A stretch of 58,423 nucleotides of DNA, filler included, from Dugesia japonica (Eukaryota), in the NCBI GenBank assembly GCA_001938525.1. It is 3 parts of 3 records of this genome, joined end to end, with 100 filler letters (N's around TTAATTAATTAA, not from the genome) between each part and the next. Parts side by side here need not be neighbours in the genome. Positions count along the whole stretch, not along the records: positions 41,713 to 58,423 come from MQRL01605638.1; 2 more parts are not named here. One strand, 5' to 3'. The position numbers and the translations under genes are program-made. The notes below the pieces were generated by a model. It was not told the DNA's origin and did not search any database. It saw nothing but the letters and a program-made list of their open reading frames with translations. Shown one piece after another: positions 24,657-58,423 of this stretch; the first letter of the stretch is position 1, and the number at the start of each line of letters is the position of its first letter.

Positions 24657-24756
24657 NNNNNNNNNNNNNNNNNNNNNNNNNNNNNNNNNNNNNNNNNNNN
24701 TTAATTAATTAANNNNNNNNNNNNNNNNNNNNNNNNNNNNNNNNNNNNNNNNNNNN
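24657..24756. other. Artificial 100-bp assembly spacer N44-TTAATTAATTAA-N44
   Basis: Exact 44/12/44 layout with stops in all six frames; an identical copy lies at 41613-41712. Confidence 0.95.
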
Positions 24757-27700: not shown

Positions 27701-30573
27701 TTGTAATATGGATGGAGTTTTAAATATTTTTAAGAAATTCAAGTTTGAAATAATTTTTTTTAATTTGAAATGTTAATTTATTAAATAACATTTGTTTAAA
27801 TCATGTAAATATTTCGTTAAAATAGGTTTTGTTATTATTTACACATTTTCTGAAGTATTTTATAGATTTTTTTTGCAANGTTTTCCAATCGCAACTTTAA
27901 TTAAATATTTTAGATGTAATTTNATAAAAATGAGCTTTGAATCCTGATTCGCTAATGTGGGAACCGATAAAAAGAAAGTGATAGTTTGTGCTTAATAGAA
28001 TTTTGAAGGTTATCTTCACTATAAAGCTATTTCGAATATTTGTGTTATCAACTTCGATTTTTACTGTCAAAACGTGGGTCGAGTTTACTACAGGCATAAA
28101 GAGAAGTATTCAGAATTGGTTCGCGGCAAATGGGATCTGCTACATTAGGATAATACCAAACGTAACAAAGTACAAGATGTGGAACAGATTCGAAGAATTT
28201 GATGTGGTCAAAGTTCTTCTATATACGTCGACAGCGTATATGTTGCGCCACCTGGCTATGATCTCTTACAATGATTCAAGTTTTCTAATGAGATTATTGA
28301 TTCTAGTCATTTCAGAAAATGGAAGAAGCATGTTAAAGATTCTTTGAATCGAAGCTGATTGAATGTAATTAAATTAGAATCATATGTTTGTAGATCAGTG
28401 GCAGAAAATTGATTAACTAGGTTTAAGAATAGTGGTTATTGCTTTTATAGCCATGAAAAGATTTGTTTGAAAAATGTAATTTTACATAAAATGGTAATAA
28501 ATTAATTAAATTAACCCTGAAATCTCGGAATATTTTCAAATATCAATGCTTTAAATTCATCTAATTTTGATCCAATTAAAGTGCTGTCATTGCCACTTAA
28601 ATGTTGAAATAAATCGAAAATTTTCTAAAATATTTTACAATTAAAAATATGACGTAATCATCAAAATAAAAATTTTAAAAAACCGTTTCTTTTAATACAT
28701 ATCCATTGATGTTAGTTTTATTGCAATATTCTGTCCATTGTCTTAAAGAGATTGAGGATTTTTTGGTAAAAAGACTTAGTATTGTAACTCCGCTCAATTT
28801 AAGAGTTACTAAATTCTAAAAATAATCCAATTTTAATTCAATGAAATATTGTGTAGTTCAATTACATTTAGTCGGGAAAACGATTCTGGCAAAGTAGACA
28901 ATTTTGTATGTTCAATGGATAAATATTTCAATAAATGTAAATTTCCTATTTTATCTGGTAATGCCGTTATCAATGTATTGTTTAATTCAAGGCTATTGAG
29001 CTGCTTAAATGAACATATTATTTCAGGAAGTTCTTTAATTGGATTGCCATCAAAGCAAAGTTGTCTAAGAATTTTAATCAAATAATTACACTTTTTTTAA
29101 TAATAAATATTTCTTAAATTATTAAAATTCTCATTTATTAGCAAAAAGTATTTTAATTATAAAAATAATTGATAATATATAACAAAATTATAAAACCATA
29201 ATAACTTGAACAAAATTAAAAATAAATTTTAAAAATATCTGCTTAGTAAGAAATACCTATGTATAAAATTAAACTAAACATAATTAAATTAAAGTAAATG
29301 TAAACAAAAAACAAGTAGATTCTGCTTTCTAAAAAAAACAGATGATCTTGATGTCTTAATATTATAATTTTTTAACTTTTGATATGTATTTTAAGTCAAT
29401 GTTGATATTGGATTGGTATTTGTTAAGCCCTTTAGATTTATTTATAAACTATTTACGTGTAATATCTGTGTATCAATAGATAAACCAAATGAAAAATATA
29501 CGATGTGTAAAAATAGCCTTAAAATAGTTTATATTATTACTAGGCTTTCTTTGGACTTNNNNNNNNNNNNNNNNNNNNNNNNNNNNNNNNNNNNNNNNNN
29601 NNNNNNNNNNNNNNNNNNNNNNNNNNNNNNNNNNNNNNNNNNNNNNNNNNNNNNNNNNNNNNNNNNNNNNNNNNNNNNNNNNNNNNNNNNNNNNCTGGAC
29701 AATATTCCCCAGAAAATTATTAAATTATATTATTCTTTTCAATTGAAAATTATTTTAAATTATTATTTATATTAAAACCGAAAAAAAATTTTATAAGCAA
29801 ATTTTAATAAGCAAAATGACTCTAGGACAATTTCTCCCCGGACAAAATAATTAAAATTTTGTAGGAAGTAAAATATTTTAAATTAAAATAAAGCTTTCAA
29901 AAATCTTTTTGTTGTCTAGGGGGTTATTGTCCTAGAGTCATTTTGCTTATTAAAATTTGCTATTAAATTTTTTTTTTCGGTTTTAATATCATAAATAATT
30001 ATTTTAAATAATTTGCAATTGAAAATAATAATATAATTAAATAATTTTCCGGGGATATTGTCCTAGAACCTCTAAAAAGACAGAAACGTGATCTCTTTCA
30101 AAATTAAATAAAGTTGTGGAACGTTGAATTATTAAAACAATTATTTAATTATTTAATATCAAATTACAAGTCGATTATTAATATATATTATTAAATTATA
30201 AAATAATACAACCATTCAAAATTTTACTTCAAGCTTTCTTTTAAATGAATAATTTCTGGACCGATTTCTTCCAGTTCACAATTTGACAGAGTAAGAGAAG
30301 ATAATGTTGGCAAATTAACAATCCATGATATATTCATCATAGTTCCAAAATCAACTTCAAGTTTCCTTAGTTTTTTGCAAGTTACTAATGCGGTTTCTGC
30401 CACATTATCCATTTCACTTCGTTTGATTACGATATTTGCAATGCATCGACAATATGCACCTAGATTAGTTCTTCCCATAACATTTGATGCCGACCTATGG
30501 CTTTCACATCCGATAAATTTTTGTTCAAGCATGTCTTGGATTTTTAAAATGTCATCATCAGTCCAGGGTAACT
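24800..30573 (-). CDS. ROCO-family LRR-Roc GTPase gene, multi-exon, 3' part (COR etc.) missing beyond the assembly join
   Basis: LRR exons at ~30228-30573, ~28860-29065 and ~25510-25687. P-loop exon KTPPFEIRKQG..CYRTKLMLVGLGGAGKT (~25300-25468). Exon with G3 WDFAGQ..YYNTHQFFLT and G4 IVGTHSDK (~24934-25249). G5-like ISSLTGK at ~24800-24820. Short GT-AG introns. Confidence 0.88.
27900..28450 (+). mobile_element. Old mariner transposase remnant in a ROCO intron
   Basis: An interrupted frame reads CA**NFEGYLHY..INFDFYCQ..KEKYSELV..LLH*DN..VAPPGYDLL, resembling the mariner catalytic domain. Confidence 0.7.
29339..29558. repeat. Dispersed repeat, near-identical to 37430-37650 (non-autonomous hAT fragment)
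   Basis: Shared CAGATGATCTTGATGTC...TTTGGACTT; ORFs 29413 and 37505 translate almost identically. Confidence 0.85.
29695..30070. mobile_element. Foldback/MITE with ~150-bp inverted arms
   Basis: GGACAATATTCCCCAGAAAATTAT...AAGCAAAATGACTCTAGGACAAT is mirrored by ATTGTCCTAGAGTCATTTTGCTT...ATAATTTTCCGGGGATATTGTCC. Confidence 0.8.
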
Positions 30574-34290: not shown

Positions 34291-34660
34291 TAAAATACAT
34301 ACTTACCAATGGCTGAAAAATTCTAATTCATATTATTGATTTAAAATAAAGTATTTTACAATTGCAATTATTGCGAGAATAATTGTTGGACATAACCATT
34401 GATCGTTTTACAGAATTCATTTAAAATAAAATCTTTGATCAAAATTTTTGATTTATTTATTGATATTTGATAACAATTCGATATTTTGATCTTGTTATCA
34501 AATATCAATAAAAAATAACAAAAATTTTGATCGAAGCTTTTATTTTAAATTAAAACAAAGTAATACAAACTCAGATGTTTATAAATGGGAAGCTAAAATA
34601 CAATTCAAATTCCAATTAATATTAAAAGAATAATAACACAAACGGATTGAAGCCTTAGCT

Positions 34661-35783: not shown

Positions 35784-36129
35784 CTATAAGATACAAAGAT
35801 ATAAATTATAAAAATTAATTTTACATATTGCAATTATATATGAATTTAATGGAAATGAAAATTGTTTTTTAATTAATTTAAAAATAAATGTTAGTTTTTC
35901 TATTTTCAATAAAATTTTAAGGATCCATAAAATACTAGGCAATTAATTATTAAAAAAAATTCTGCAAAAGAATGGGAAGAGAGAAATTATACACGTGTTA
36001 AAATATTATTTAAAACTTTTAAAATTATCTAATTAAAAGTCGTATAAAATGTGTCTTAAAAGTAGTGAGACTTAGGTGAAATGATACATATCATAAATTT
36101 TTTAGCATAATTAAATAATGCATATAAAG

Positions 36130-37264
36130 TATTTGAAAGATGTTTTATGGATTTATGTGCACTATTTCAGACTACAATAACTGAAAAGAAATACATTTTT
36201 GGTATAATTGATCAATTTAATAAATATACTATTTCAAAGGTTATGACATCACAAGATGATAAAACCATTACGAAATTACTTTTAAATGAATGGATTTTAA
36301 AATTTGGGACCCCGAAAACAATTCATGTAGATAGAGGAAAAGCTTTCGAATCAAATTTATTACNTAATTTGTCAGAAAGACTTCATTTCAATATTATTTA
36401 TTGAAGTCCCTATCATCGCCAAGCCAATGAACAAAAAGAAATACAATTTCGTACAAAAGGAGATTGACTGTCTGTAATTTAAAAGATCAATCACATAAAA
36501 ATTAGGAAGATGCGCTCCAACGTATAGAATTTGCTTTGAATGAGACAACACAGAAAAGTATAAGATTTAGCCCAGCAGAACTTGTTTTTGTCAAAAAAGA
36601 CAAACAAAGAAATATTTATCCATAAAACTTAATCTTGCGAACGTCCATTGATACATATTAAATTGTTGAATGATGTTCGGTGCGAACGAAAGGAAAGTTA
36701 TTAATAATGCTAATATGATTAACTATAACAATAGTGATAAAAGAATCAATATACATTTCAAAATTGGTGGTAGTGTCCATGTAAAACTAGACATAAGAGA
36801 TAAACAGGATATATGAAGGGCCTTATAAAATTATACATGAAATACACAACAATATCCTTAAATTGAGGAATTCTAAGGGTAAAGAGATAGTTCGAAATAG
36901 AGAATGAATAAAGCCATTTAAAACTAGGTGGTGTGAAATGATTACACAATCATCTCTAATTGCCAGTATAAATAAATTATGTATGATTACATGTGTGTAT
37001 GATAAGGGATGCTGTTTTATTTGTTTGAGTCCGACAAAATTATTTCTTAGATTTTTTCCCAGACTGCTGGCTTCTAGGACAATCTACTCTAAATTACATG
37101 TTCCCAAACTTATTTGGTTTAATGTCTCTTTTTTGGGGATGGTGCTGATGTGCTTTTAGTAACTTTTATATATCCGGATACATTTTTGTCAGCATCATTC
37201 TCAAATCTCCATGTTCAACTATTTGCAAGCGATTTTTTTTGTAGATAAAAGACTTGTGACCACA
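36130..37264 (+). mobile_element. Gypsy integrase remnant with probable PPT and 3' LTR
   Basis: MDLC..IIDQFNKY..EWILKFGTPKTIHVDRGKAFES..SPYHRQAN; GPY motif near 36820. LTR-like tract ~36932-37264 ends in CACA. Confidence 0.82.
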
Positions 37265-37429
37265 GTAAATCTAAGTTTTACTAACTATGATGATGGGAAT
37301 GCAATAAAAAATTTTATTGCAACAGACCACCATTATGGTAAATGATGAAATATACATATCTTTAGCATGGATATATTTATTATTATTTCTATATTAGAAG
37401 CAAAAAAACATTTAAAACGTCTGAGTAGA

Positions 37430-37728
37430 ACAGATGATCTTGATGTCTTAATATTATAATTTTTTAAATTTTGATATGTATTTTAAGTCAATGTCGATAT
37501 TGAATTGGTATTTGTTAAGCCCTTTAGATTTATTTATAAACTATTTACGTGTAATAACTGTGTATCAATAGATAACCCAAATGAAAAATATACGATGTGT
37601 AAAAATAGCCTTAAAATAGTTTATATTATTACTAGGCTTTCTTTGGACTTTCAGGGACATCCACCAGGGCTCCCTTTATTCTCTCCAATACCGCCAGGAG
37701 GAAGTGTACCACAGTTTGGGAATCTATG
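37430..37728. mobile_element. Non-autonomous hAT end fragment with TIR
   Basis: Ends CAGTTTGGGAATCTATG (revcomp CATAGATTCCCAAAC), followed by the target-like CTCTAAAT; second copy at 29339. Confidence 0.75.
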
Positions 37729-38684
37729 CTCTAAATTCTTGAATAATTTCCACCTCTTTATTTATTGAAAATTTTTCAAAAAAATATAATTACCTATTCC
37801 TTGAATAGGAATTTAAATTAACTCCAACTCATTTAAATGTTTATTTATTTTCTATTAAAAGTGTAACGGGGCACCAAAATTTGTAAGTGCTTAGGACTTT
37901 ACAAAGTGTTAATCTTGTCCCGTGTAATCATTTATTATGCATGCATTTATTATATTATCAGTAATGCAAATTGACAGAAATAAACAAAAATTATATTTAA
38001 AAAGAAACTTGGCAACTGCCAAATATTTTAGATTTGTAGAAATTGAAATAATATTTGAAAAATTACAAACACTAAAAATATTCTTTTTTTACAATTCAAA
38101 TCAGTTTTAAAATATTTATCCAACCAAAATGAAAAGAAAGAATCCCACAATTTAAATTCAAATTAAAGAGATAGAAAACAGAAGTAGAAAAATTCTTTTA
38201 TTGTTAATCAATTAAGTTAACTTGTTAAATTTTTGTTATTTTTATTTTATTTTTTTAATTTACTAATTTTTCTAATTAATATTAGTTATAGAACAAGCAC
38301 CCCAGTTGTCACCACAAATTTTGATGGACTCCGTTGGGGCCAATAATTTCTTCTATAAAAAGAATTGATTAATTAATATTTACAACCCAAATTTAGATAA
38401 TACAAGAAATAAGATTACAATATAGAAATTTACAACTATATTATTCCTGTTGGTTAAAATAAATATAATTAATTGTTACTTAATTTTATAAATATATTAA
38501 TGATATTTTAATAATTATTATAATAATTATTAATTATTATTAATTATAATTAATTAATTACTTCATTATAATTATATTGATCAATAATTAACAAATTAAA
38601 TTAATTTTACAATTGCAATTATTGCGAGAATAATTCTTGGACGTAGCCATTGATCGTTTTATAGAATTCATTTAAAATAAAAGT

Positions 38685-38721
38685 CAATTCCTAAAGAAGA
38701 CTAAGTCGAAATATCGAATTG
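38685..38721 (+). ncRNA. Minimal type I hammerhead ribozyme motif (Penelope-like), core G5>A mutated
   Basis: CAATTC-CTAAAGA-A-GAC TAA GTC-GAA-ATAT-C-GAATTG: 6-bp helix I, 3-bp helix II, palindromic ATAT helix III. Confidence 0.6.
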
Positions 38722-39042
38722 TTATCAAATATCAATAAAAAAAACAAAAATTTTGATCGAAGCTTTTATTTTAAATAAATTAATTAATAATTATAATTAG
38801 TGAATTAATTAATTTAAAAAATCTTAATTTAATATAATTTTCAATTTTTTTTTTCGTAATTATTTGTTAGAAATAAATACGGGAAGACCCTTTAGATTGC
38901 TTGCATAAAACATAAATAATAATCTGTGGGCTACTATAGTGGTTTTGAAGGAATTCAATTCTAATTTATTCCTCTTTATAAGCATTATAATTATATTTTT
39001 TCCTTTTAAAAATAATATATTTTATATATTTTTGTTATTTTA

Positions 39043-40799: not shown

Positions 40800-41505
40800 T
40801 TGAGTACTCGAATACTTGATATTCAAATATATTTGCCTATTTTTTAACTAGTTGATATTCGAATATTTTTTCCCCATATTCGAATAATTTCAATAATGTA
40901 AAGGTAAAGTAAGCTTTGAAAAAGATACTATCCATTTCTCTTCTTACAAACAAACTATTTCTTATATGTTAGAAAAAGGAAATAAAATTCTCAAATACAA
41001 AAAATAATATTTAACATTGAGTCAAGGATGGATGAGAGAAGAGATCGAGCTTTAATGACACTGATAATTTATCTACAGAGTGAAAATATAGCAAGTTCTA
41101 GCGATCATTTTAAATATTTCTCAAAAAATGCAGCAATTTAATTCGCTGTTAAAATTATGGAACAAATATATCCTCAAATGTTTATAGAATTGCATATTAA
41201 TAATGATTTTACCTCATCTTCATCCGATGCAGATGATTTAATAGAATTAACGTCACAGATTTGATTGTAAAATAAAAGTCTAAAATGCAATAATTTCTAT
41301 TACAGATCCACAAAAATATCATATTTGCAATTGCAGTCAAATTGATAAATATAACGAATTGAAGAAAGGATTTCGTCAATTAGAATGTTTCAAAAAACTG
41401 TATACAACGCCGGATGTTTTGTATCACGCTTTTTCATTAACAACTTCTGAAAGAGTATTTTCAACAGCAAGTTCAATTAAAACAAAAAGAAGAACATGTT
41501 TATTT
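40800..41505 (+). mobile_element. Internally deleted hAT element (subterminal repeats plus C-terminal dimerisation remnant)
   Basis: TTSERVFSTASSIKTKRRTCL at ~41441-41503. 40802-40868 resembles the revcomp of 3384-3451. Confidence 0.75.
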
Positions 41506-41612
41506 ATTTATTTTCGTATTTTCTAATTTATCGGTCTTTGGTTAGATTTTTTGTTTGCGTTTGATTGTGATTATTTTGATGAGACTTTTATAATATTTTA
41601 AGTTATCTACTT

Positions 41613-41712
41613 NNNNNNNNNNNNNNNNNNNNNNNNNNNNNNNNNNNNNNNNNNNNTTAATTAATTAANNNNNNNNNNNNNNNNNNNNNNNNNNNNNNNN
41701 NNNNNNNNNNNN
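41613..41712. other. Artificial 100-bp assembly spacer N44-TTAATTAATTAA-N44
   Basis: Identical to 24657-24756. Confidence 0.95.
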
Positions 41713-43505
41713 TGTTGGTATAACCATATCTACTTCTAATGTGTATTCATATGGTAACGATTCGAGATCTCCTATTCTACATTCTTTCAATACTGAATCC
41801 AATCCAGTATATACCCACTCAAAATTGGCATAAGGCAATTTCTGACTTAATACCCATCCATATAGATTGTTGATGTCGATGTATAATAAATCGGTGTTTT
41901 CGTTAGTAACAACATGATGTTTATTTACAAATGATAGCCCTCCTCTTATACCTCATTCGAAAAAGGTATACAAGTCATTATCAGTCAACAATTCAATTGG
42001 CTCATTTAATGACATCAATGCAGATGCCCAACTCATACCTGGGATGCNNNNNNNNNNTAATGGCTCCAAATTATTGTGTGCCAATGATTTATTTCTGAAT
42101 TGTTGAAAGAAATCGGCTAACAAAAACACATGTAGTTTCAAATATACTAGCATGTAATCCAATAAATTGTTGCATCCTGTTATAGTCCACATTTCCACTG
42201 CTTTTTGATAATCTTGCCCACTAACATCCTTTCATCTTGGTGGCATTGTTGTTGTTTCAATCAGAATTTCTAAACTGGTGGCATAGAAAACTGGTGGCAA
42301 GAAAATATCCCCTTTGGCATTGTTATTCTTTTGTCTTTAAATTCGTTTGTTGTCAAAGGTGTCTCTTTTAAGGATTTGACTGCTGCATCCAATGGTGAGT
42401 TTATAAATTGGTACGAGTCAATTAATCTGATTGTATTTTCTTTTAGATGTTCAATGAGACATAGGAATTTTTCTGATGTTGTTAGTATATATGATATGGT
42501 CCAATGTGGAAATTAATTTAATCCATACTTTAATATATGATGAAGGTCATATCCTCTGAAATTATGGAAGACTACTGGTAATTGATAATTAATACTGCTT
42601 AAATTGCATTTATTACAGGCCGCTCCAATATACTTGCCTGTAAAATGATCATGATCCCGAACTGGATTACATAAAGGTTTTTTGCACTGATGACATATTG
42701 TACTTTGTTTAAATTCTATTTCTTGATCGAGGTTCATAATTCGTTTGTTTTTTCCTTCTTTAATATAATTTGAATATACTATATTATTACTAATTTCCTC
42801 CACTGCCTTTAGGAATTTATGTACACATTCATTTCCAACAAACTGACTTATTTGACTTCATTGGTAAAATTATTTACCAACAACAGTCCAGCTGAAACAG
42901 GTAAATGTTTCTGGAAATGCTTGCCATCGCTTGGTAATACTGATTCAAAATCAGCATATATAACAAAGGGTAGAGTTATAGTTTTAGAGTAATCCTGAAA
43001 CTCCAGATTTTTTTCTGTTGGCATCTTGTATAATGTGGTGCCCTTCTGAATTTTCTCACAAATTTGTTCATGCGTCTTGTAAGCCGTAGTATCCTTGAAT
43101 CCGTTGAGACAATTTTCGCAACAGATTGATTGAATTCGAACACCACTCTTTTTAATATCTCGGTTTATCAATCTATTCAAATTCATTACGGCAGTGTAAT
43201 GAAATTTATTAGTATCTTCCAATAACAATGAATTGATCTTTTCTCCATCACATTTAGAATGATATATAATGTCTAAATTCGGATGCTTCATGATAACGTC
43301 ATCATCATCTTCTACTGATTGTGGATTCCATGAGAAAACATTAATTGATAAGCCTGGGTTCTGTTTTTCAAATTTAGGGATATTTGCAAGCTTCATTGGC
43401 ATGTCCCCTTTATCAAATACAAGTTTGGACGTATATTTTTGATAATTAGACACCCTAAATTTATTATTTCTAACTTTATCTTGTTTGAGAATTGCTAGAA
43501 TACTA
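41713..43505 (-). pseudogene. Adintovirus/Polinton-type protein-primed PolB, partial copy B2
   Basis: FEKQNPGLSINVF; CENCL..HEQIC zinc finger; YADFES (ExoI); endonuclease VII-like CHQC..RDHDHFTGKYIGAACNKCN; FHNFRGYD (ExoII); YLKL..LLADFFQQFR; YIDINNLYGW. Stops and frameshifts. Confidence 0.92.
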
Positions 43506-43555
43506 NNNNNNNNNNNNNNNNNNNNNNNNNNNNNNNNNNNNNNNNNNNNNNNNNN

Positions 43556-45061
43556 CCAATGCGGAAATTTATTTAATCCATACTTTAATATATGGTGAAG
43601 GTCATATCCTCTCAAATTATGGAAGACTTTTGGTAATTGATAATTGATTCTTCTGCTTAAATTGCATTGATTACAGGCTGTTCCTATATACTTGCCCGTA
43701 AAATGGTCATGATCCAGAACTGGATTACTGAAAGGTTTTTTGCACAGATGATATATTGTACTTTGTTTGAATTCCATTTCTTGATCCGACTTCATAATTC
43801 GTTTCTTTTTTCCTTCTTTAATATAATATGGATATACTATATTATTACTNNNNNNNNNNNNNNNNNNNNNGAATTCATGTACACATTCATTTCCAATAAA
43901 CTGGCTGTATTTGACTTCATTGGTAAAATTATTTAACAACAACAATCCAGCTGAAACATGTAAATGTTTCTGGAAATGCTTGTCATTGCTTGGTAATACT
44001 GATTCAATAAAACAGCTCGATTGGATAATCTAGAAGTTTTTGTTTCGTCTTCTTTTTCGAATTCGACATTTATCCCAAATTGGATTTTGACAGTTTTTAA
44101 TTCTTCAATAATTTTAAACAACTGCCCAATCAAGGAATTTAGTAAAACGATTTCTCTCGTATTCCACTTTGAAACATTCATTTTTAATATCGGGTGACAT
44201 TTATATAAGTCACTTTCTATTANCACATCTTCATTGAGAGAGCCACCAACTTGTGCTTCTTCTTCATCTATAAAACTTTGCATGACAATATCCTCTTCAT
44301 TTATTTCATTTATGATTTGAAAATTGGACTTGTTATCTTCAGTTATCTGAGATTCAACCTTCATTTTTCCATCTTCTTTTCTCTTCTTCAATAGTAGGCC
44401 ATCTATCTCTTTATCTAATATCATCTTCAATAATTGTTTTTTATTTGTTGTAAACTGACCTAAGTGGTCTGCATGGAACCTATAAAAGTCTAAATATTCA
44501 CCTATTCCTATAGACCTGCATGACGGACATATGTAATACTTTTCCTTATAATAAGATTGTGCATAGTATCTCTGCATAATACTATGGCAGCCCCTTTTAC
44601 AATTTGCACAATATTGTTTGTACATTGTACAACATTCTGGAAAAAAATAATTTTGATCCATTTTATAAAATTATTAAAACATAAAATAAATTATAAAATA
44701 AAAAACTAACTTTTATCATAAATAGGAGGAGCAACTGGAGCAAAAACAACAGAAGCATCATAATTCTAAAATAAATAATTTTAACAACTATCAACAGTTG
44801 ATAATAAATTTACTTTATTTAAACTCTTTCACTTGATACCTCTTCCACCTTGATTTGAATTATTATAATTCTAAAATAAAATTAATTATCATTAAATAAT
44901 AAAAATAAATTTACATTATCCATCATTAAACTTGTCAAATTCATACTTCATTTATCGTTTATATTATTCATAACCTGAAAACAATTAAATAATAATAATG
45001 AAAATCAATAGTTTACCGTTTCTTCGCTCAACAGTTTTCTCAATATGCTTTAATTGTTCAT
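43556..45061 (-). pseudogene. PolB copy B1: intron-split 5' end, Cys-rich and acidic N-terminal region, deletion into the exonuclease/endonuclease VII segment
   Basis: ORF 43933-44661 (YCANCKRGCHSIMQRY..CPSC..QVGG). 43556-44006 closely duplicates ~42500-42948. Four GT-AG introns lie upstream in phase. Confidence 0.85.
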
Positions 45062-45119
45062 AGTTTTAATTAAATTGTGAAAAATTCTAAAAATAAACTA
45101 CTTTTATAATGTCAAAATA

Positions 45120-45320
45120 ATTTTTCTATTGTATGTATGTATTATACTTTTTCAATTCCTTCTGTATGTATGTATCATATTTTTTTATCCTCTTTGTACG
45201 TGTTTATCATATATTTTCTATCCCCATTTAACTATTTGTGTGTGTGTATTAAAATTTTCTATCCTCATTGTATGTGTGTATCATAATTTTTCCATCCATT
45301 TTGTAAGTGTGTATTAGAAC
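45120..45320. repeat. Short tandem repeats (TGTATGTGTGTATCATATTTTT-like, ~28-38 bp) upstream of PolB copy B1
   Basis: About 6 imperfect copies. Confidence 0.7.
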
Positions 45321-45624
45321 TTTTCAAATACCGCAACGCAGTATATTTAGTTAATTTTAAAATATTGCAGCTTAATATATTTTTAATATATATTTTAAAA
45401 TTTTTGATAAATTAATTATAAGGTATTGCAACGTAGTATATTGTTACATTTACAAAGTAATTAGTCATGAAAATAACAAAGACATGTTATAACAAAGGTC
45501 AATTAACTACTTTATATTTTTATGATTTTAACAAAGATTAATTATTATTTTATAAATAAAATAAAAATAAATTAAATATATTCATAAAATACATTTATTT
45601 ACATAAAACATATACATTTTCAAC

Positions 45625-48600
45625 TACAATGTTGAATTAGAAGTATCAAGTAGCTGATCTCTCACCATACTTGCTGTTATGTTTTCTTATTTAGTATTTT
45701 CTATTTCTAGAAAAAAACTATCTGTATCCCCGGCTACAATATTAATTATACAATTATATTCCTTCCTTTACTGGTCCAACTCAGTGTACTGAAGTTTGTA
45801 CATTCTCAATTTTGAGAGGTCAAGTACAGTTTGTCCTATGTAACTCAGACGATCTAAACAAACTATGTCCTTATTGANNNNNNNNNNNNNNNNNNNNNNN
45901 NNNNNNNNNGTTGTTTTCTTAAATCCGGCTTTTGATGTGTATGTAATCAGCTTCTTTGCTGAATTACATAAGCGGAGATTGATCCTGTTCTTGAGTTTCT
46001 CCAATGATTTTCCATATAAACTGTTATTTAATAGTTTATAATAGTTTTTATCCAATTCAGTAACACAATTTGATCCGAGAACTGTGTTAGTATTGATATA
46101 ATTCTCAAAAATTGAAGCTTATCTGAATTTCACTCGTCGATGAACCTCCGTTACTTGAACCCTTAAACTTATATACATTTGAAGCAATCTCCAGTGCACT
46201 ATGTAATTGTTCTTGGAGTAGTGCGTTAACATTTATTTCTTCAATTTACAACCTGGAGCGCTTCTATGTTCTGCTGCAACAGGTAAATCATTCAAATAAT
46301 CATGAATTTTCGCAGGAATCACCATGTTCACTTTTAGAGTGTATCCGTATGACAATGAGTCTAAGTCTGCATTCTTACACTCTTCCAAAACGTTATCTAA
46401 TCCATTTTAGATCCATTCGAAATTTGCAAAGGGCAACTTTTGACTAAGTGCCCAACCATATAGATTATTAATATCTATATACAAAAGGTCAACATTCTCA
46501 GTAGTATCAACATAGTGCTTGTTAACGAATGTTAACCCTCCTCTTATACTTCCTTTAAAAAAGGTATACATATCATTATCTTGAAGCAACTCAATCGGCT
46601 TTTCTAATGAAATTAATGCAGATGTCCATGACATTCCAGGTATTCCAAAGAAATTTAGCGGTTTCAAATTATTGTGTGCTAAAGACTTTGCGCGGAATTG
46701 CTGGAAAAAATCAGTTAATAAATACACATCCAGCTTCAAATATAACATCATATAGTCCAGCAAATTTGTACAGTTGAATATTTCCCACATCGATAATGCT
46801 TTCTCATACTCTTCTCTACTAACATCCTCTCATTTTGGTGGCATTTGCTTGGTTTCTTCCAGAACCTGCAAGCACGTTGCAAAACTGTATGGAAATATCC
46901 CCTTTGACTTGGTAATAGTCTGATTCTTAAACTGCTCAGTAGTCAAAGGTATCACTTTTAAGGATTTAACAGCAGAGTCTAATGAAGAATTTATAAACTG
47001 ATAATTGTCGATGAATTTAATTGATGTTGATTTAATTTGTCGTACAATTAAACATAGAAATTTTTCTGATGTTGTTGGGATGCATGATATTTCCCAATTA
47101 TTAAACGTCTTAATACCATATTTGAGGATATGATCTTCATCATATCCTCGTTAATTATGAAAGACCACTGGTAGTTGAATATATAATTTTCTACTTAAAT
47201 CGCATTGGTTACATGCTGCTCATCTATATTTCCATGTGAAATGGTCATGGTCACGAATGGGATCTCTTATTTCCTTCTTACATAAATAACAAACTTTTGC
47301 AGCTTTGAATTCTTTATCCTGATCTATTGTTATTATAATTTTCTTTTTTCTTTCTGTTTCATAATAAGGAAACACAGTGTTTTTGCTTATTTTCTCCACA
47401 GCCTTTAGGAAATTATACACACAGTCATCTCCAATAAACTGTCTGTATGTTGATTCGTTGGTAAAATTATTTACTAACAGTAGACCAGCCGAAAGGGGTA
47501 AATGTTTCTGGAAATGCTTCTCATCTAGAGGTAAAACCGACTCAAAATTTGCATATATAACAAAAAATGGTGTTATGGTTTTCGAATAATCCTTAAAAAT
47601 CAAGTTCTTCTCTGTTGGCATCGTATACATGGTGGTACCTGTTTGGACTTTTTCGCAAATCGGTTCATGTTTCTCATATGCGACTTCATTTTTGAATCCA
47701 TTCAAACAGTTAGGACACCATGTTGATCGAATGCAAACACTTTGTCCTTTATTATCCCTCTTCATTAGAAGATTTAGATATAGTACTGCGGTGGATTGAA
47801 ATCTGTTGTTATTTTCCAGTAATAACAGATATACTTTCTCTCCATCTATCACTTTCGAACGATGTATTATATCCAAATTTGGATGTTTCATTACTACGTC
47901 ATCTTCTTCATCATCCACTGATTCTTGATTCCATGATCGGACATTGATGGATAGTTATATTATTCTTCTCAAACTTTGGTATATCAATCAGTTTCATCGG
48001 CATATCCTTATCATCAAAAATAAGCTCCAACATGTGTTTTTTATATAATGTTACACGGTTTCTATGCTTTCTTTCAACTTGATCTTTTTTATTGATAGCA
48101 AGAATACTGTAAATAAAACAGTAATTATCATCGTCCTTGATGTAAACAATTGCTTCTTTCCTTTTAAAATCTTTCGGTGCTGCAAAATAACTTTTCCCCG
48201 AAAGTCGACATATATTTGCAACCTTGGTGATTTTGAAATTAATTCCCAGTATTCTGTTTAACATCCAACTAGAACCTAATTCGCTTCTTATTGTTATTTT
48301 CTCATTTAATTGATTAATCCTATCTTCAAAAAAGTTATCAGTTAATGCAACGGCTCTAATTGATATCCCAGAGGTTTTAAACTCAAATTCTTCTCCATTT
48401 TTTAACATTTTAACATTTTTCATTTCTTTTATTGACTCAAATACTTTGTTGACTGTTGCTTCTGGTACAATAATTTCACGACAATTCCAACTTGTGACAT
48501 CTATTTTTAAAACACGATTTAAATCTGTTTCTTTTATCACACCATCATCAGTTTTAATTATTCATCCACCGAATTGAATATTTTCTTCTGCATCCGTGAA

Positions 48601-49323
48601 ATGTTGTAATAAAATCACCTCATCCCCAATTTCGTCAAATAGTTTGGTATCATCAGCAGCATTAATTATCGATCGACTATCTTGCAAATTTTCGTCTGAA
48701 TCCATAAACTGATGTAATAAAATGTCGTCATCCCCAATTTCTTCAAAACGTTGAGCGTCATCATCAGTATTAATTATCGATCTACTATCGTGCATGTTTT
48801 CTTCTTCATCCATAAACTGATGTAAATTATTGTTCTCGTCCCCGATTTCGTCAAATAGTTTAATACGATTCCTATTCTCTTCATCTGGTTCATTATTGAT
48901 TGTTCGTTCTTTTTCTTCAGATTCTATATTGATTGTTTTTTCTTCTTTGTCATCTTCAATAATATTCTTAATTGTATTAACTTCCGGTTCATCTAACTCA
49001 CTAAGCATCTGTCTGTCTAATAATGATTTTAGTAAATTTTTTTTATTTTTAGTGAAGCTTGTTAAATAGGTTTTATATGTATTATAAAAACTTAAATAGT
49101 CTTCTAAGCCTAATACCTAACAATTAGGACAAACGAAATAATTTTTCCCATAAAACCAATGTTTCTAGTATCTTTCCATAATACTATGACAGTCACCATT
49201 GTGACTCACACTAGCGCAATGGTTTCTGTACAAGATGCAAGTATCTGTATTCCAAATCATTCTTGGATTAACGTCTTCTGCTGAATCTCTATCTCCAATT
49301 TCAAAAATATTTACCATTTTCAT
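45625..49323 (-). pseudogene. Adintovirus/Polinton-type protein-primed PolB, near-complete decayed copy A
   Basis: In order: CHSIMERY, acidic repeats, QFGG, DNYCFIYSILA, CPNCL..HEPIC, YANFES, DHDHFT, KGIFPY, YLKLDVYLL, RGG, YIDINNLYGWALSQKLP, KLLNNSLYGK, AGDTDSFF, LDTSN, then truncated. Confidence 0.93.
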
Positions 49324-49374: not shown

Positions 49375-52300
49375 TTCTTTATCATATTATTTGACCCTGT
49401 TCTTTTGCTTTACACTCTCCCTTTCTTTTACCCTCTCCCTTTCTTTAACTCTCTCCCTTTCTTTGACCCTCTCCCTTTTTTTAGGCTCTCCCATTCTTTT
49501 ACCCTCTCCCTTTTATTTAACCCTCTAACTTTCTTTTACCTTTTTACTTTTCTTTTACCCTCTTCCTTTTCTTTACCCACTCATTTTCTGTAACACTCTC
49601 ACTTTCTTTTACACTCTTATTCTCTTTTACACTGTCCTTCTCTTTTACCCTCTACCTTTCTTTAACAATATTCCTTTCTTTTACCCGCTCTCTTTCTAAA
49701 ACCCTCTTCTTTTCTTAAAACCCTCTTCTTTCCTTTTACCCTCTTTTCTTTTTTTACCCTCTCCCTTTCTTTTACCCTCTCTCTTTCTTGTACCTTCTTT
49801 TATTACTTTAACCCGCACCTTTTCTTATAACCACTCCCTTTTTTTACCCTAACCCTTTCTTTTACCCTCTTCCTTTATTTTATTCTTTTCCTTTCTTTTT
49901 TCCTCTAATTTTCATTTACCTTCTTCCTTTCTTGTACCTTATTTTATTTCTTAAACCCTCTCGTTTTATTTTTACCACTCCCTTTTTTACCCTCTCACTT
50001 TCTTTTACCCTGTTGCTTTCTTTACCCTCTTCTTTTCTCTTAAACTGTTCTTTTTTTAACCTCTCCCTTTCTTGTACCTTCTTTTATTTATGTAACCCTC
50101 TCCTATTCTTTTAACCACTCTCTTTTTTTACCCTAACCCTTTCTTTTACCCTCTTCCTTTATTTTAGTCTCTTCCTTTCTTTTAACCTCTCCCATTCCTT
50201 GACTCTCTTCTTCTTTTTACGCTCAATTTTTTTTACCATCTCCTTTCTTTAACCCTTTCCCTTTGTTTTAATCTCTCTTTCTTTTACTGTCTCACTTTCT
50301 TTAACCCTCTCTTTCTCTTTATTCTTTACTTTTCTTTTACCCTCTCCTTTTTTTGTACCTTCTTTTATTTCTTTAACCCTCTCTTTTTCATTCCACCACT
50401 CCCTTTTTTTACCCTAAATCTTTCTTTTACCCTCTTCCTTTATTTTACTCTCTCCCAATCTTTAACCCTCTCCCTTTCTTTTACCCTCTTCTTATCTTTA
50501 ACACTCTTCCTTTCCTTTTCCCTATTTTTTTGTTTTACCCTCGCTTTTTCTTTTACCCAATAACTTTCTTTTACGCTCCCTTTTTCTTTATTCTTTACTT
50601 TTCTTTTACCTTCTCCCTATCTTGTACCTTCTTTTATTTCGTTAACCCTCTCCTTTTCTTTCCACCACTCCCTTTTTTCACCATCTCACTTTCTTTAACC
50701 CTGTTGCTTTCTTTACCCTCTTCTTTTCTCTTAAACTGTACTTTTCTTTTACCCTCTACCTTTGTTTTACCCTCTTCTTATCTTTTACAATCTTCTTTTC
50801 TTTTACCCTCTCTCTTTCTCTTACCTTCTACATTTCATTAACTCTCTCCTTTTCTTTCCATATATCCCTTTTTTTACCATAAATCTTTCTTTTACCCTCT
50901 TCCTTTCTTTTACCCTCTTCTTTACTTTAACCCTCTCACTTTCTTCAAAACTCTCCCTTTCTTTTACACTCTCCCTTTCTTTAAACATTCTCCAATTCTT
51001 TTACTTTCTTCTTTTCTTTTACAATCTCCCTTTCCTTAACCCTCTTCCTTTCTTTTTCCCTCTCCCATTTCTGTACCCTCTTCTTTTATTTTACCCTCTC
51101 ATTTTTTTGAATCCATCTCCTTTCTTCTATCCTCTCTCATTCTTTAACACTCTTCTTTTCTTTTAACCTCTCCCCTACTTTTAACCTCTCTCTTTCTTTT
51201 ACCCTATGCCTTTCTTTTAACATCTCCCTTTCTTTATTCTTTACTTTTCTTTTACCCTCTCCCTTTCTTGTACTTTCTTTTATTTCTTAAACTCTCTCCT
51301 TTTATTTCCACCGATCCCTTTTTTTACCCTAAATCTTTCTTTTACCCTCTTCCTTTCTTTTACTCTCTCCCAATCTTTAACCCTCTCCCTTTCTTTTACC
51401 CTCTTCTTTTCTTTAACACTCTTCCTTTCATTTTCCCTATTCTTTTGTTTTACCCTCGCTTTTTCTTTTACCCAATAACTTTCTTTTACGCTCCCTTTTT
51501 TTTTATTCTTTACTTTTCTTTTACCTTCTCCCTATCTTGTACCTTCTTTTATTTCGTTAACCCTCTCCTTTTCTTTCCACCGCTCCATTTTTTCACCATC
51601 TCACTTTCTTTTACCCTGTTGCTTTCTTTACCCTCTTCTTTTCTCTTAAACTGTACTTTTCTCTTACCTTCTACATTTCAGTAACCCTCTCCTTTTCTTT
51701 CCAACAATCCTTTTTTTACCATAATTCTTTCTTTAAACCTCTTCGTTTATTTTACCCTCTTCTTTTCTCTTACCCTCTCACTTTCTTCAACAGTCTCCCT
51801 TTCTTTTACACTCTCCTTTTCTTTGAACATTCTACAATTCTTTTACTTTCTTCTTTTCTTTTACAATCTCCCTTTCCTTAACCCTCTTCCTTTCTTTTTC
51901 CCTCTCCCATTTCTGTACCCTCTTCTTTTATTTTACCCTCTCATTTTTTTGAATCCATCTCCTTTCTTCTATCCTCTCTCATTCTTTAACACTCTTCTTT
52001 TCTTTTAACCTCTCCCCTACTTTTAACCTCTCTCTTTCTTTTACCCTATGCCTTTCTTTTAACATCTCCCTTTCTTTATTCTTTAATTTTCTTTTACCCT
52101 CTGCCTTTCTTGTACTTTTTTTTATTTCTTAAACCCTCTCCTTTTATTTCCACTGATCCCTTTTTTTATCCTAAATCTTTCTTTAACCCTCTTCCTTTAT
52201 TTTACTCTCTTCATTACTTTTACTCTCTTTTCTCCTAAACTGTACTTTTCTTTTACCTTCTACCTTTGTTTTACCATCTTTTTTCTTTAAAACTCTTCTT

Positions 52301-55300
52301 TTCTTTTACCCTCTCTCTTTCCCTTACCTTCTAATTTTCATTTATCTTCTCCTTTTCTTTTAACCTCTTCTTTTTTTAACCTCTGACGTTCTTTAAAAAT
52401 CACCCTTTCTTTTACCCTCTTACTTTCTTTAACCTCTTCTTTTCTTTTACCTTCTTTTTTTCTGTTAACCTCTCTATTCCTTGACTCTCTTCTTTTTTTT
52501 TATCCTCTATTTTTTTAACATCTCCTTTCTTTTAATCTCTCTCTTTCCTTATTCTGTCTCTTAATTTTACTGTCTCACTTTCTTTTACCTTCTTGTTTTC
52601 TTTATTCTTTACTTTTCTTTAACCCTCTCCCTTTCTTTTACACTCTTCTTTTCTTTCAACCACTCCCTTCCTTTTACCCTCTTCCTTTATTTTATTCTCT
52701 TCCTTTTTTTATCCTCTCCCTTTCTTTTACCCTCTTCTTTTCTTTAACACTCTCCCTTTCCTTTTCCCTATTCTTTTGTTTTACCCTCTCCTTTTCTTAT
52801 ACCCTATCACTTTCTTTTACCCTCTTACTTTCTTTTACCCTGTTGCTTTCTTTACTCTCTTTTCTCCTAAACTGTAATTTTCTTTTACCTTCTACCTTTG
52901 TTTTACCCTCTTCTTTTCTTTTAAACTCTTCTTTTCTTTTACCCTCTCTTTTTCTCTTACCTTCTAATTTTCAATTATTATCTCCTTTTCCTTTACCCTC
53001 TTACTTTCTTTAACCTTCTCTTTTCTTTTACCTTCTTTTTTTCTTTTAACCTCTCCAATCCTTGACTCTCTTTTTTTCTTTTACCCTCTATTTTTTTAAC
53101 ATCTCCATTCTTTTACCCTCTCCTTTTCTTTTAACCTCTCTCTTTCTTTTACTGTATCCCTTTCTTTCACCCTCTCATTCTCTTTTATTCTTTACTTTTC
53201 TTTTACCCTCTCCCTTTCTTGTACCCTCTTTAATTACTTTAACCCTCTCCTTTTCTTTCAACCACTCACTTTTTTTATCCTAACTCTTTCTTTTACCCTC
53301 TCTCTTTCTTTAACCCTCTTGCTTTCTTTACCCTTTTCTTTTCTTTTAACTTTTTCCTTTCGTTAAGCCACTCCCTTTCTTTAACACTCTCCATTTCATT
53401 TACCTCTCTCCTTTTCTTTTACCCTTTTGCTTTTTTAACCCTTTNNNNNNNNNNNNNNNNNNNNNNNNNNNNNNNNNNNNNNNNNNNNNNNNNNTCAACC
53501 ACTCACTTTTTTTATCCTAACTCTTTCTTTTACCCTCTCTCTTTCTTTAACCCTCTTGCTTTCTTTACACTTTTCTTTTCTTTAAACTTTTTCCTTTCGT
53601 TAAGCCCCTCCCTTTCTTTAACACTCTCCATTTCATTTACCTCTCTCCTTTTCTTTTACCCTTTTGCTTTTTTAACCCTTTTCTTTTCTTTAACTCTCTT
53701 CCTTTCGTTTACCCTTTTACTTTCTTTTACACTATCCATTTATTTTACCTTCTCCTTTTCTTTTAACCTCTTCTTTTCTTTTACATTCTCCCTTTCCTTT
53801 TCCTTCTTCTTTTGTTTTACCATCACCATTTCTTTTAACCTCTATTTTTTTTAACATCTCCATTCTTTAATCCTCACCTTTTCTTGAAACCTCTCTCTTT
53901 CTTTTACTGTCTCACTTTCTTTTACCATATCCTTTTCTTTTATTCTTTACTTTTCTTTTAACCTCTCCCTTCCTTGTACCTTTTTTTATTTCTTTAATCC
54001 TCTCCTTTTCTTTCGACCACTCCCTTTTTTTATCCCACCTCTTTAATTTACTCTCTTCTATTCTTTTACCCTCTTCGTTTCTTTTACCCTCTCTCTTTCT
54101 TTTAGCCTGTTGCTTGCTTTACCCTCTTCTTTTCTTTTACACTCTCCCTTTCATTTTCGCTATTCTTTTGTTTAACCCTCTCCCTTTCTTTAAACCTCTA
54201 CTTTTCTTTCAACCACTCCTTTCCTTTTACCCTCTTCCTTTATTTTATTATCTTCTTTTCTTTTACCCTCTCACTTTCTTTAAAACTCTCCCTTTCTTTT
54301 ACCCACACCCTTTCTTCTTGAACAAACTCCCTTTCTTTTACCCTCTACCTTTCTTTTACCCTCTCCCTTTCTTTTAACCTCTTCTTTCATTTTACCATCT
54401 CCCATTCTTTTATTCTTTTCTTTTCTTTTACCCTCTCCCTTTTCTGTACCATCCTTTTTTTCTCCAACCCTCTCCCTTTTTTTTACATTCTTACCTTTCT
54501 TAAACCCTCTTCCTTTCATTTACCCTCTTATTTTTTTTACACTCTCCCTTTTATTTTCCCTCTTCTTTTGTTTAACCCTCTCCCTTTCTTTTAACCTCTC
54601 CCTTTCCTTTTCCTTCTTCTTTTGTTTTACCCTCATACTTTCTTTTACACTCTACTTTTCTTTCAACCAATACCTTCCTTTAACCCTCTTCCTTCATTTT
54701 ATTCTCTTCCTTCTTTTTACTCTCTTCTTTTCTTTGACCCTCTCACTTTATTTAAAACTCTCCCTTTCTTTGACATTCTCCCTTTCTTAAACCCTCTTCC
54801 TTTCATTTACCCTCTTCTTTTCTTTAACACTCTCCCTTTCCTTTTCCAATTCTTTTGTTTAACCGTCTCCTTTTCTTATACCCAATCACTTACTTTTACC
54901 ATCTCACTTTCTTTTACCCTGTTGCATTCTTTATTCTCTTCTTTTCTCCTAAACTGTACTTTTCTTTTACCTTCTACATTTGTTTTACCCTCTTCTTTTC
55001 TTTTAAACTCTTCTTTTCTTTTACGCTCTCTCTTTCTCTTACCTTCTAATTTTCATTTACCTACTCCTTTTCTTTTAACCTCTTCTTTTTTTTACATTCT
55101 TACTTTCTTTACCCTCTTCTTTTCTTTTACCTTCTTTTTTTCTTTGAACCTCTCCATTACTTGACTCTCTTCTTTTCTTTTACCCTCTATATTTTTTAAC
55201 ATCTCCTTTCTTAATCTTTCTTTTACCCTCTTTATTTATTTGATTCTCTTCCTTTCTTTAACACTCTTCTATTCTTTTACCCTCTTCTTTTCTTTTACCC

Positions 55301-58300
55301 TCTCCCTTTCGTTTACCTTCTCCCTTTCTTTTAATCTCTTCTTAAATTTACCCTCTCCCATTCATTTTATTCTTTTCTTTTCTTTAACACTCTCCCTTTT
55401 CTGTACCATCCTTTTTTTCTCTAACCCTCTCACTTTCTTTTACATTCTCCCTTTCTTAAACCCTCTTTTTTTCATTTTCCCTCTTCTTTTGTTTAAACCT
55501 CTCCCTTTCTTTTAACCTCTCCCTTTCCTTTTCCTTCTTCTTTTGTTTGACCATCATTCTTTCTTTTACACTCTACTTTTCTTTCAACCACTACCTTCCT
55601 TTTACACTCTTCCATCATTTTATTCTCTTCCTTTCTTTAACACTCTTCTTTTCTTTTACCCTCTCCCTTTCTTTTACCCTCTCCCTTTCTTTAACCTTCT
55701 CTCTTTCTTTAAACCTCTTCTTAATTTTACCCTCACCCATTCTTTTATTCTTTTCTTTTCTTTAACCCTCTCCCTTTTCTGTACCATCCTTTTTTTATCT
55801 AACCCTCTCACATTCTTTTACATTCTCCCTTTCTTAAACCCTCTTCCTTTCATTTTCCCTCTTCTTTTGTTTAACCCTCTCCCCTTTCTTTTAACCCCTC
55901 GCTTTCCTTTTACTTCTTCTTTAGTTTGACCCTCATCCTTTCTTTTACACTCTACTTTTCTTTCAACCACTATCTTCCTTTTACACTCTTCCTTTATTTG
56001 ATTCTCTTCCTTTCTTTAACACTCTTCTTTTCTTTTACCCTCTCCCTTTCTTTTACCCTCTCCCTTTCGTTTACCTTCTCCTTTCTTTTAACCTCTTCTT
56101 AATTTTACCCTCTCCCATTCTTTTATTCTTTTCTTTTCTTAAACCCTCTCCCTTTTCTGTACCATCCTTTTTTTCTCTAACCCTCTCACTTTCTTTTACA
56201 TTCTCCCTTTCTTAAACCCNNNNNNNNNNNNNNNNNNNNNNNNNNNNNNNNNNNNNNNNNNNNNNNNNNACTTTCTTTTACATTCTCCCTTTCTTAAACC
56301 CTCTTCCTTTCATTTTCCCTCTTCTTTTGTTTAACCCTCTCCCTTTCTTTTAAACTCTACTTTTCTTTCAACCACTAACTTCCTTTTACACTCTTCCTTC
56401 ATTTTATTTTCTTCTTTTTTTTACCCTCTTCCTTTATTTTATTCTCTTCCTTTCTTTAACACTCTTCTTTTCTTTTACCCTCTCCCTTTCTTTTACCCTC
56501 TCCCTTTCTTTTACCTTCTCCCTTTCTTTTAACCTCTTATTAATTTAACCCTCTCCCATTCTTTTATTCTTTTCTTTTCTTTAACCCTCTCCCTTTTCTG
56601 TACCATCCTTTTTTCTCTAACCCTCTCACTTTCTTTTACATTCTCCCTTTCTTAAACCCTCTTCCTTTCATTTTCCCTCTTCTTTTGTTTAACCCTCTCC
56701 CCTTTCTTTTAACCTCTCCCTTTCCTTTTCCTTCTTCTTTTGTTTGACCCTCATCCTTTCTTTTACACTCTACTTTTCTTTCAACCACTATCTTTCTTTT
56801 ACACTCTTCCTTAATTTTACTCTCTTCCTTTCTTTAACACTTTTCTTTTCTTTTACCCTGTCCCTTTCTTTTACCCTCTCCTTTTCTTTTAAACTCTTCT
56901 TTTCTTTTACGCTCTCTCTTTCTCTTACCTTCTAATTTTCATTTACCTTCTCCTTTTCTTTTAACCTCTTATTTTTTTTACATCCTTACTTTCTTTACCC
57001 TCTTCTATTCTTTAACCTTCTTTTTTTCTTTGAACCACTCCATTACTTGACTCTCTTCTTTTCTTTTACACTCTATATTTTTTAACATCTCCTTTCTTAA
57101 TCTTTCTTTTACCCTCTTCATTTATTTGATTCTCTTCCTTTCTTTAACACTCTTCTTTTCTTTTACCCTCTCCCTTTCTTTTACCCTCTCCCTTTCGTTT
57201 ACCTTCTCCCTTTCTTTTATTCTTTTCTTTTCTTTAACCCTCTCCCTTTTCTGTACCATCCTTTTTTTCTCTAACCCTCTCACATTCCTTTACATTCTCC
57301 CTTTCTTAAACCCTCTTGCTTTCATTTTCCCTCTTCTTTTGTTTAACCCCCTCCATTTCTTTTAACCTCTCCCTTTCCTTTTCCTTCTTCTTTTGTTTGA
57401 CCCTCATCCTTTCTTTAACACTCTACTTTTCTGTCAACCACTATCTTCCTTTTACACTCTTCCTTTATTTTACTCTCTTCTTTTCTTTAACACTTTTCTT
57501 TTCTTTTACCCTCTATCTTTCTTTTACCCTCTCCCTTTCTTTTAACCTCTTCTTAATTTAACCCTCTCCTATTCTTTTATTCTTTTCTTTTCTTTAACCC
57601 TCTCCCTTTTCTGTACCATCCTTTTTTTCTTTAACCCTCTCACTTTTTTTACATTCTCCCTTTCTTAAACCCTCTTCCTTTAATTTACCCTCTTCTTTTC
57701 TTTTACACTCTCCCTTTCATTTTTCCTCTTCTTTTGTTTAACCCTCTCCCTTTCTTTTACCCTCTCCCTTTCTTTTTCCTTCTTCCTTTGTTTTACCCTC
57801 TCTCTTTCTTTTAACCTCTCCCTTTCTTTAAGCCTCTTGCTATCTTTACTCTTTTCTTTTCTTTCAACTTCTTAATTTCGTTAAGCCCCTCCCTCTCTTT
57901 TACACTCTCCATTTCTTTGACTCTATCCCTTTCTTTTACCCTCTTGCTTTCTTTACACTCTTCTTTTCTTTAACCCTCTTCCTTTCGTTTACCCTTTTAC
58001 TTTCTTTTTCACTCTCCATTTCTTTTACCTTCTCCCTTTCTTTAAAACTCTTCTTTTCTTTTACCCTCTCCCTTTTCTGTCCCATCCTTTTTTTCATAAA
58101 CCCTCTACGTTTATTTCACCCTCTAACTTTCTTTTAGCCTGTTGCTTGCTTTACCCTCTCCCTTTCTTTTATCCTCTCCCTTTCTTTTACTCTATCCATT
58201 CTTTAAACATCTCTCTTTCTTTTACCCTCTCCCTTTCTTTAATCCATTGTGCTTTCTTTACCCTTTTCATTTCTTTAAACTTCTTCCTTTCGTTTAGCCC

Positions 58301-58423
58301 CTGCCTTTCTTTTGCACTCTCCATTTCTTTTACCCTTTCCCTTTCTTTTACCCTCTTGCTTTCTTTACCCACTTCTTTTCTTTAACCCTCTTCCTTTCGT
58401 TTACCCTTTTACTTTCTTTAGCA
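49375..58423. repeat. >9-kb polypyrimidine/polypurine satellite, ~18-bp unit CTTTCTTTTACCCTCTCC, with higher-order blocks
   Basis: Hundreds of diverged TTTTACCCTCT/TTTAACCCTCT-centred units; G is nearly absent on the + strand; continues to the window end. Confidence 0.95.

Follow-up and report, generated by a model that had tools for sequence, protein, structure and literature searches.

Decayed polymerase genes at a Dugesia japonica locus, probably the remains of two families of capsid-coding Polinton-like elements

Polymerase fragments between positions 41713 and 49323

We analysed a stretch of 58,423 nucleotides from the Dugesia japonica assembly GCA_001938525.1, referred to here as the window, which contains degraded genes for a family B DNA polymerase of the protein-primed type (pPolB) resembling those of Polintons and adintoviruses. 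The DNA is AT-rich (GC 17-36%) and interrupted by numerous N gaps. An earlier note on this sequence described three minus-strand pPolB copies between positions 41713 and 49323. Mapping onto P0002, an intact relative of 1242 amino acids (aa), confirmed three minus-strand segments, A, B1 and B2; these are fragments and not gene copies, aa 465-615 of P0002 being the sole region present in both B pieces. No PolB match was found in the window outside these positions.

Copy A is a pseudogene (45636-49323, minus strand) that covers aa 117-1104 of P0002, with a weak match extending to aa ~11. Its reading frame shifts once, near 47955, and is broken by 11 stops and a short N gap, and it lacks the last ~140 aa; the break falls just after Pol motif C, in agreement with the truncation noted earlier. 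It is composed of a Cys/His N-terminal module, acidic repeats, terminal protein (TP)-like and vOTU-like regions, an exonuclease with an endonuclease VII (EndoVII)-like insert, and Pol motifs A-C. The names TP and vOTU are inferred from position, from the conserved Cys and His residues and from the TP-vOTU-exonuclease-palm layout described by Krupovic et al. (PMC11161782). The acidic N-terminal part contains 2.6 copies of a 108-bp tandem repeat (48580-48862), and the EndoVII/HNH-like insert, with a stop inside, lies at approximately 47190-47300 on the minus strand. A Cys/His-rich module followed by a variable acidic linker is common to the N-termini of A, B1, P0002, P0015 and the related loci L015, L016, L022 and L023. 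This module has no Pfam match, and in L027 and L037 it forms a frame of its own ahead of PolB.

B1 consists of two minus-strand parts, a stop-free N-terminal part at 44011-44661 (aa 1-193 of P0002) and a second part at 43556-44005 (aa 465-615, comprising the end of ExoI, the EndoVII-like insert and ExoII), joined over a deletion of aa ~194-464. B2 (41713-43505, minus strand) is a pseudogene piece covering aa 276-878, with two frameshifts, 3 stops and gaps at both ends. The boundary between B1 and B2 is a scaffold gap of 50 N at 43506-43555, as had been described; 50 is probably a placeholder size, since the window has five gaps of exactly this length. The Endonuclease_7 family (PF02945, Pfam cut-off 23.6 bits) is matched near the cut-off in all three pieces, at 19.4 bits in A (below it), 23.0 in B1, and 23.5 and 25.0 in B2. 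The earlier statement that each copy has an EndoVII-like module between ExoI and ExoII holds for the matches but not for the integrity of B1, where the deletion clips the ExoI motif and the module's first Cys has changed.

About 1.0 kb separates the end of A from the start of PolB homology in B1 (44631-44661); the ~560 bp given previously is obtained only by counting to intron-like pieces near 45075. This stretch is free of assembly gaps from 45910 to 44224. It contains a block of 32-33-bp tandem repeats (45128-45325) and, at 44662-45080 on the minus strand, short coding-like pieces with GT..AG spacings of 42-76 nt. These pieces have no homologue among the loci retrieved below and could possibly represent a spliced leader or a small open reading frame of B.

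On both sides the locus is cut off. To the left of B2 lies a 100-bp spacer (41613-41712) made of 44 N, a 12-mer and 44 N, identical to the one at 24657-24756. The 12-mer has stops in all six frames and is presumably a contig-joining linker, which its exact repetition at the second spacer supports. The spacer points to an artificial join, so the lack of genes left of 41713 is uninformative and the sequence there need not neighbour B. To the right, a pyrimidine-rich satellite of ~500 copies of an 18-bp unit (49409-58419) starts ~85 bp upstream of A, where the left arm of A would be expected. This satellite of ~9 kb is extremely skewed between its strands, with a GC skew of approximately -0.9, and has a 379-bp higher-order period near its end; it is unrelated to the repeats upstream of B1 (best E value 0.33).

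The polymerase clade and its virion genes

Copy A, used as a single reading frame with X at stops, yielded 815 relatives, the best being 56% identical across the full query. We retrieved 89 loci, 14 viral and 75 metagenomic (drawn from the best 80 of 493), ~15 of which are close to the window copies but short. Three viral contigs were candidates for a match to copy A and none was confirmed. A tree was calculated with FastTree (SH-like support) on 50 of 57 rows, five loci and two distant proteins being left out. In this tree A and B are each other's nearest rows, and the window copies fall within one 21-row clade (SH-like support 99) together with locus L026, placed over 224 aa.

The polymerase shares with those of Polintons/Mavericks and adintoviruses its protein-primed type (family PF03175 is matched in A, B2 and P0002) and an N-terminal extension in which a Cys and a His are conserved at positions resembling those of vOTU. 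Neither of these residues, Cys272 and His381, varies in any of 36 relatives. A structural model of P0006, which belongs to the sister group, has a predicted local distance difference test (pLDDT) value of 87 and a folded α/β region at aa ~85-197. Its top structural matches are bidnavirus-like (the first three), adintovirus and MELD-virus PolBs, with 17-24% identity in the structure alignment, and also the phi29 polymerase; no PDB sequence was matched by the PolB profile. Starrett et al. (PMC8502044) separate Alpha adintoviruses, whose PolBs resemble those of bidnaviruses by BLASTP, from Beta adintoviruses, whose PolBs do not. The structural ranking leans towards Alpha, the published criterion being BLASTP. 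Unlike bidnaviruses, the relatives described here have a Polinton-type capsid and protease and not a parvovirus-like capsid. Since named PolBs are only 17-24% identical to P0006, the close clade, with metagenomic members at 40-56% identity, seems to be unnamed; supplements of Polinton papers may list flatworm members.

Among the 120 relatives listed of the 815, 77 have both ExoI and ExoII motifs; the HNH motif occurs in 68 of these 77 and lies between the two in 67. The Cys/His residues of this motif are the same in all 36 close relatives compared, and in distant loci it was recognized in 2/24 with a strict and 6/24 with a looser pattern. Judged by these motifs, the EndoVII/HNH module is a trait of the PolB clade. 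Comparable modules have been reported in several papers: diverse homing endonuclease inserts in polinton pPolBs (PMC11161782), an HNH insert in the pPolB2 of nematodes and oomycetes (bioRxiv 2023.08.22.554363), and an EndoVII domain annotated within the PolB of Spodoptera Maverick 1 and 2, both complete insect elements, with weak domain calls (E values 0.02 and 0.32; PMC5803895). The likeness lies in the nuclease module inside the polymerase.

L026 also carries virion genes. Downstream of its PolB and on the opposite strand, it codes for a 111-aa protease-like and a 406-aa capsid-like protein. The best Atlas matches of the 406-aa protein are clusters of the double-jelly-roll family PF21738 (score 0.98; family on 15-30% of members), and those of the 111-aa protein are Peptidase_C5 clusters (score 0.97; family on 14-54% of members). 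The latter protein, which is adenain-like, is 35% identical to the protease of the distant locus L069 and gave a weak match to a protease in PDB (E value 0.9). Pfam matched neither protein, nor three relatives of the capsid, and a single-sequence model of the capsid reached a pLDDT of 29. The L026 capsid has 170 relatives; seven viral contigs were candidates for a match to it and none was confirmed. When the PolB matches listed on contigs of at least 10 kb were compared with 18 capsid-bearing contigs, 7 of 19 shared an exact size in bp with one of them, against an estimated ~0.02 matches expected by chance. An eighth equal-sized pair measures 12,578 bp. PolBs on the size-matched contigs, P0006 among them, are 46-55% identical to A.

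Among distant loci, 25-35% identical to P0002, 18 of the 19 that are at least 10 kb long carry an ATPase, integrase, protease or capsid gene, with an rve integrase in 16/19 and a packaging ATPase in 17/19 (L001 and L056 are apparently the same contig). L069 combines integrase, ATPase, capsid and protease with a PF02945-bearing PolB. Accessory genes were also seen among the loci: a dual-specificity phosphatase in L018 (2926-3234), and TBP-like, PLA2-like and KilA-N genes in L030 (11783-15139), the first two with look-alikes in L029 (5977-6477).

We consider, with a probability of roughly 0.8, that the locus contains the dead remains of capsid-coding elements of Polinton/adintovirus type. These would belong to two families, A and B, and be either nested or brought together by a deletion. 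As in Polintons and adintoviruses, relatives of the window copies carry a double-jelly-roll capsid and an adenain-like protease, and more distant ones an ATPase and an rve-chromo integrase; formal membership is likely, though incomplete. The survival at the locus of polymerase fragments alone is unlike these elements. Intact members would code for a protein-primed polymerase of ~1200 aa close to their left end and, further downstream and on the opposite strand, for a protease and a capsid. The polymerase itself would comprise a zinc-binding-like N-terminal module, terminal-protein and vOTU regions, an exonuclease with the HNH/EndoVII insert, and a palm.

Several observations weigh against this interpretation. 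L026 is the sole contig of the close clade that was read directly, and its PolB overlap is just 224 aa. Co-location of PolB and capsid elsewhere in the clade is deduced from equal contig sizes, and 12 of the 19 contigs are unmatched. No integrase could be linked to the close clade, since the 120 integrase matches listed (of 1496) include none whose contig size agrees with one of its contigs; an ATPase was likewise not seen, no dedicated test having been made. L017, L018, L020 and L024 have no virion gene in the 0.9-2.2 kb downstream of PolB, the window holds no pair of terminal inverted repeats or target-site duplication, and FastTree was the single method used for the tree.

The window itself was searched in six frames with capsid, protease and ATPase profiles. 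None of them was found (best E values 0.06-2.9), while the PolB profile recovered every piece. One of 120 capsid queries gave a tblastn match (E value 3e-4) that falls in the satellite and was rejected as low complexity. The integrase profile revealed two decayed rve remnants on the plus strand, at ~525-1140 and 36126-36931. One has an H2C2 domain and the other a GPY motif, which occurs in 0 of 120 Polinton integrases listed, and they are 36% identical to each other versus 23-26% to Polinton integrases. These remnants look Gypsy-like, and the one at 36126, which also lies beyond the spacer, was rejected as the integrase of B. The statement that virion, packaging and integrase genes are absent therefore stands for capsid, ATPase and protease, with the qualification that two integrase remnants, apparently of another kind and beyond the spacer, are present. 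Virion genes seem to be missing mostly because B2 ends mid-gene at the spacer; the left arm of B also cuts A, and the satellite abuts A. Their lack in the window says little about the gene content of the element.

The earlier note had favoured a PolB-centred, capsid-less self-synthesising element that concatemerises or inserts into its own copies, a view that relatives with virion genes would contradict. The search for such relatives found the capsid and protease of L026 and the seven size-matched contigs. All pieces are indeed co-oriented, virion genes were not found beside them, and many relatives on short contigs display PolB alone. Capsid-less Polintons are also known, nine lacking capsid, protease and ATPase together according to PMC4028283, so that even a capsid-less element here would have precedent. 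Taken at face value, the window resembles these Polintons and linear plasmids in having a pPolB without virion genes, but unlike there the absence follows from truncation, spacer or satellite cutting both sides. Most of the short contigs stop at PolB or within it, a duplicated part of PolB occurs in 0 of 89 retrieved loci, and the same PolB clade has capsids. As A and B are moreover different families (see below), we regard a PolB-only element as very improbable.

Origin of the arrangement

The relations between the fragments were examined at the nucleotide and protein levels. A is 69% identical to B over 1.8 kb of DNA and 68% identical to B2 in protein, which bears out the divergence claimed earlier. 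The ratio of non-synonymous to synonymous substitution rates (dN/dS) is 0.10 between A and B2 (confidence interval (CI) 0.05-0.15, 528 codons), synonymous sites being saturated, and 0.16 between B1 and A. Judging from these ratios, A and B are two families that diverged under purifying selection. As they split while functional, they are not repeats or a concatemer of one replicating genome.

B1 and B2 have 452 bp in common and differ at 36 of 427 columns (91.6% identity), with a dN/dS of 0.51 (CI 0.25-1.20, 140 codons). On P0002, the N-terminus of B1 occupies aa 1-193 and B2 occupies aa 276-878; the two are colinear, with no overlap. The divergence exceeds plain overlap error, and fits equally well two B copies, an inserted duplicate in one B gene, or mis-scaffolded loci. 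It is thus possible, though well short of an even chance, that the array is partly an assembly product. Either short-read contigs of separate loci within one repeat family were scaffolded, in which case B1 and B2, and perhaps other pieces, would not be neighbours, or B1 and B2 are two haplotypes of one B element. The colinearity just described is consistent with this, as are the 50-N gap at the B1/B2 join, the stretches of N within each of the three pieces, the spacer at the left edge, and a 175-bp duplicate of 100% identity (5864-6038 and 6216-6390) beside another 50-N gap at 6166. The number of differences between B1 and B2, together with the large deletion, and the gap-free stretch from A to B1 argue against it. 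Such an origin would be compatible with Polinton identity and would alter only the array.

Under the preferred interpretation of dead capsid-coding elements, the following order of events may be proposed. A would have integrated first. The left arm of B would then have come to lie within the polymerase gene of A in the same orientation, either because B inserted there or because a deletion brought two neighbouring elements together. Tandem repeats are found just upstream of PolB in L022, L028 and L037, and the 32-33-bp repeat block between A and B1 is on this basis probably part of this left arm. Part of B may have undergone duplication, or B may have beside it another copy with an internal deletion, and the satellite would have taken the place of the left end of A. 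Integration by an rve integrase is suggested by the more distant relatives only. A graveyard in which one element was inserted in or joined to another, which the earlier note had also envisaged, fits this anatomy; the papers listed by our literature search included no direct precedent for nested or concatemeric Polintons. The locus is inert now, and the elements from which it descends most likely replicated as Polintons with protein priming and a capsid gene.

The common orientation of the fragments and their position next to a satellite are also what might be expected of a source of PIWI-interacting RNAs (piRNAs) in which Polinton fragments accumulate with a single orientation. In planarians, Polintons are reported to be targeted by piRNAs: they are silenced by them (PMC8532177) and are overrepresented in one type of cluster (bioRxiv 2026.01.28.702291). 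Three co-oriented pieces resulting from two or three events are, however, expected by chance in at least 1 of 4 cases, and we hold this explanation to be unlikely.

The position of the junction raises another idea: in a clade that codes for capsids and perhaps has no integrase, the HNH insert would cleave the polymerase genes of related elements and thereby guide new elements to Polintons already in place. In agreement with it, the arm of B breaks A inside PolB, the Cys/His residues of the insert are invariant as described above, and the integrase matches listed include none from the close clade. Only one such junction is available, however, and the insert is also present in integrase-bearing relatives (the 6/24 distant loci recognized by motif), making this mechanism highly doubtful. 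Equally speculative is a fuller version in which the HNH polymerase of a capsid-coding Polinton-like clade would direct insertion or recombination into resident PolB genes, possibly without integrase, and so build co-oriented, piRNA-source nests in a flatworm-like host.

Other features of the window and significance

The two identical spacers indicate that the window probably joins separate pieces. Two spacers away from the PolB locus, an intronless 822-aa frame (16186-18654, minus strand) would code for a two-domain phosphagen kinase. Its nearest structure is the taurocyamine kinase 4wo8 (E value 6e-90; next best 1e-39), from a blood fluke, which makes a flatworm host probable. Remnants of other transposable elements include a mariner transposase (PF01359; 33001-33519, plus strand), a 273-aa frame at 21277-22098 (minus strand) that has no Pfam match and is presumably hAT-like, and a faint hAT dimerisation-like piece (41260-41520, plus strand; E value 0.09). 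A 222-bp sequence is duplicated with 97.7% identity (29337-29558 and 37429-37650), and palindromic repeats resembling miniature inverted-repeat transposable elements occur at 29697-30063 and at 34343-34565 and 38593-38789.

As it stands, the locus has little significance, degraded Polintons being common in animal genomes; Starrett et al. (PMC8502044), who describe the adintovirus gene set and its OTU-PolB, likewise report degraded copies in many animals, and the remains described here resemble these widespread endogenous copies. As a by-product, the analysis links a metagenomic Polinton-like clade, with PolBs 40-56% identical and a capsid family of its own, to a probable flatworm host. If HNH-directed nesting were true, it would provide a function for the endonuclease inserts of Polinton polymerases.

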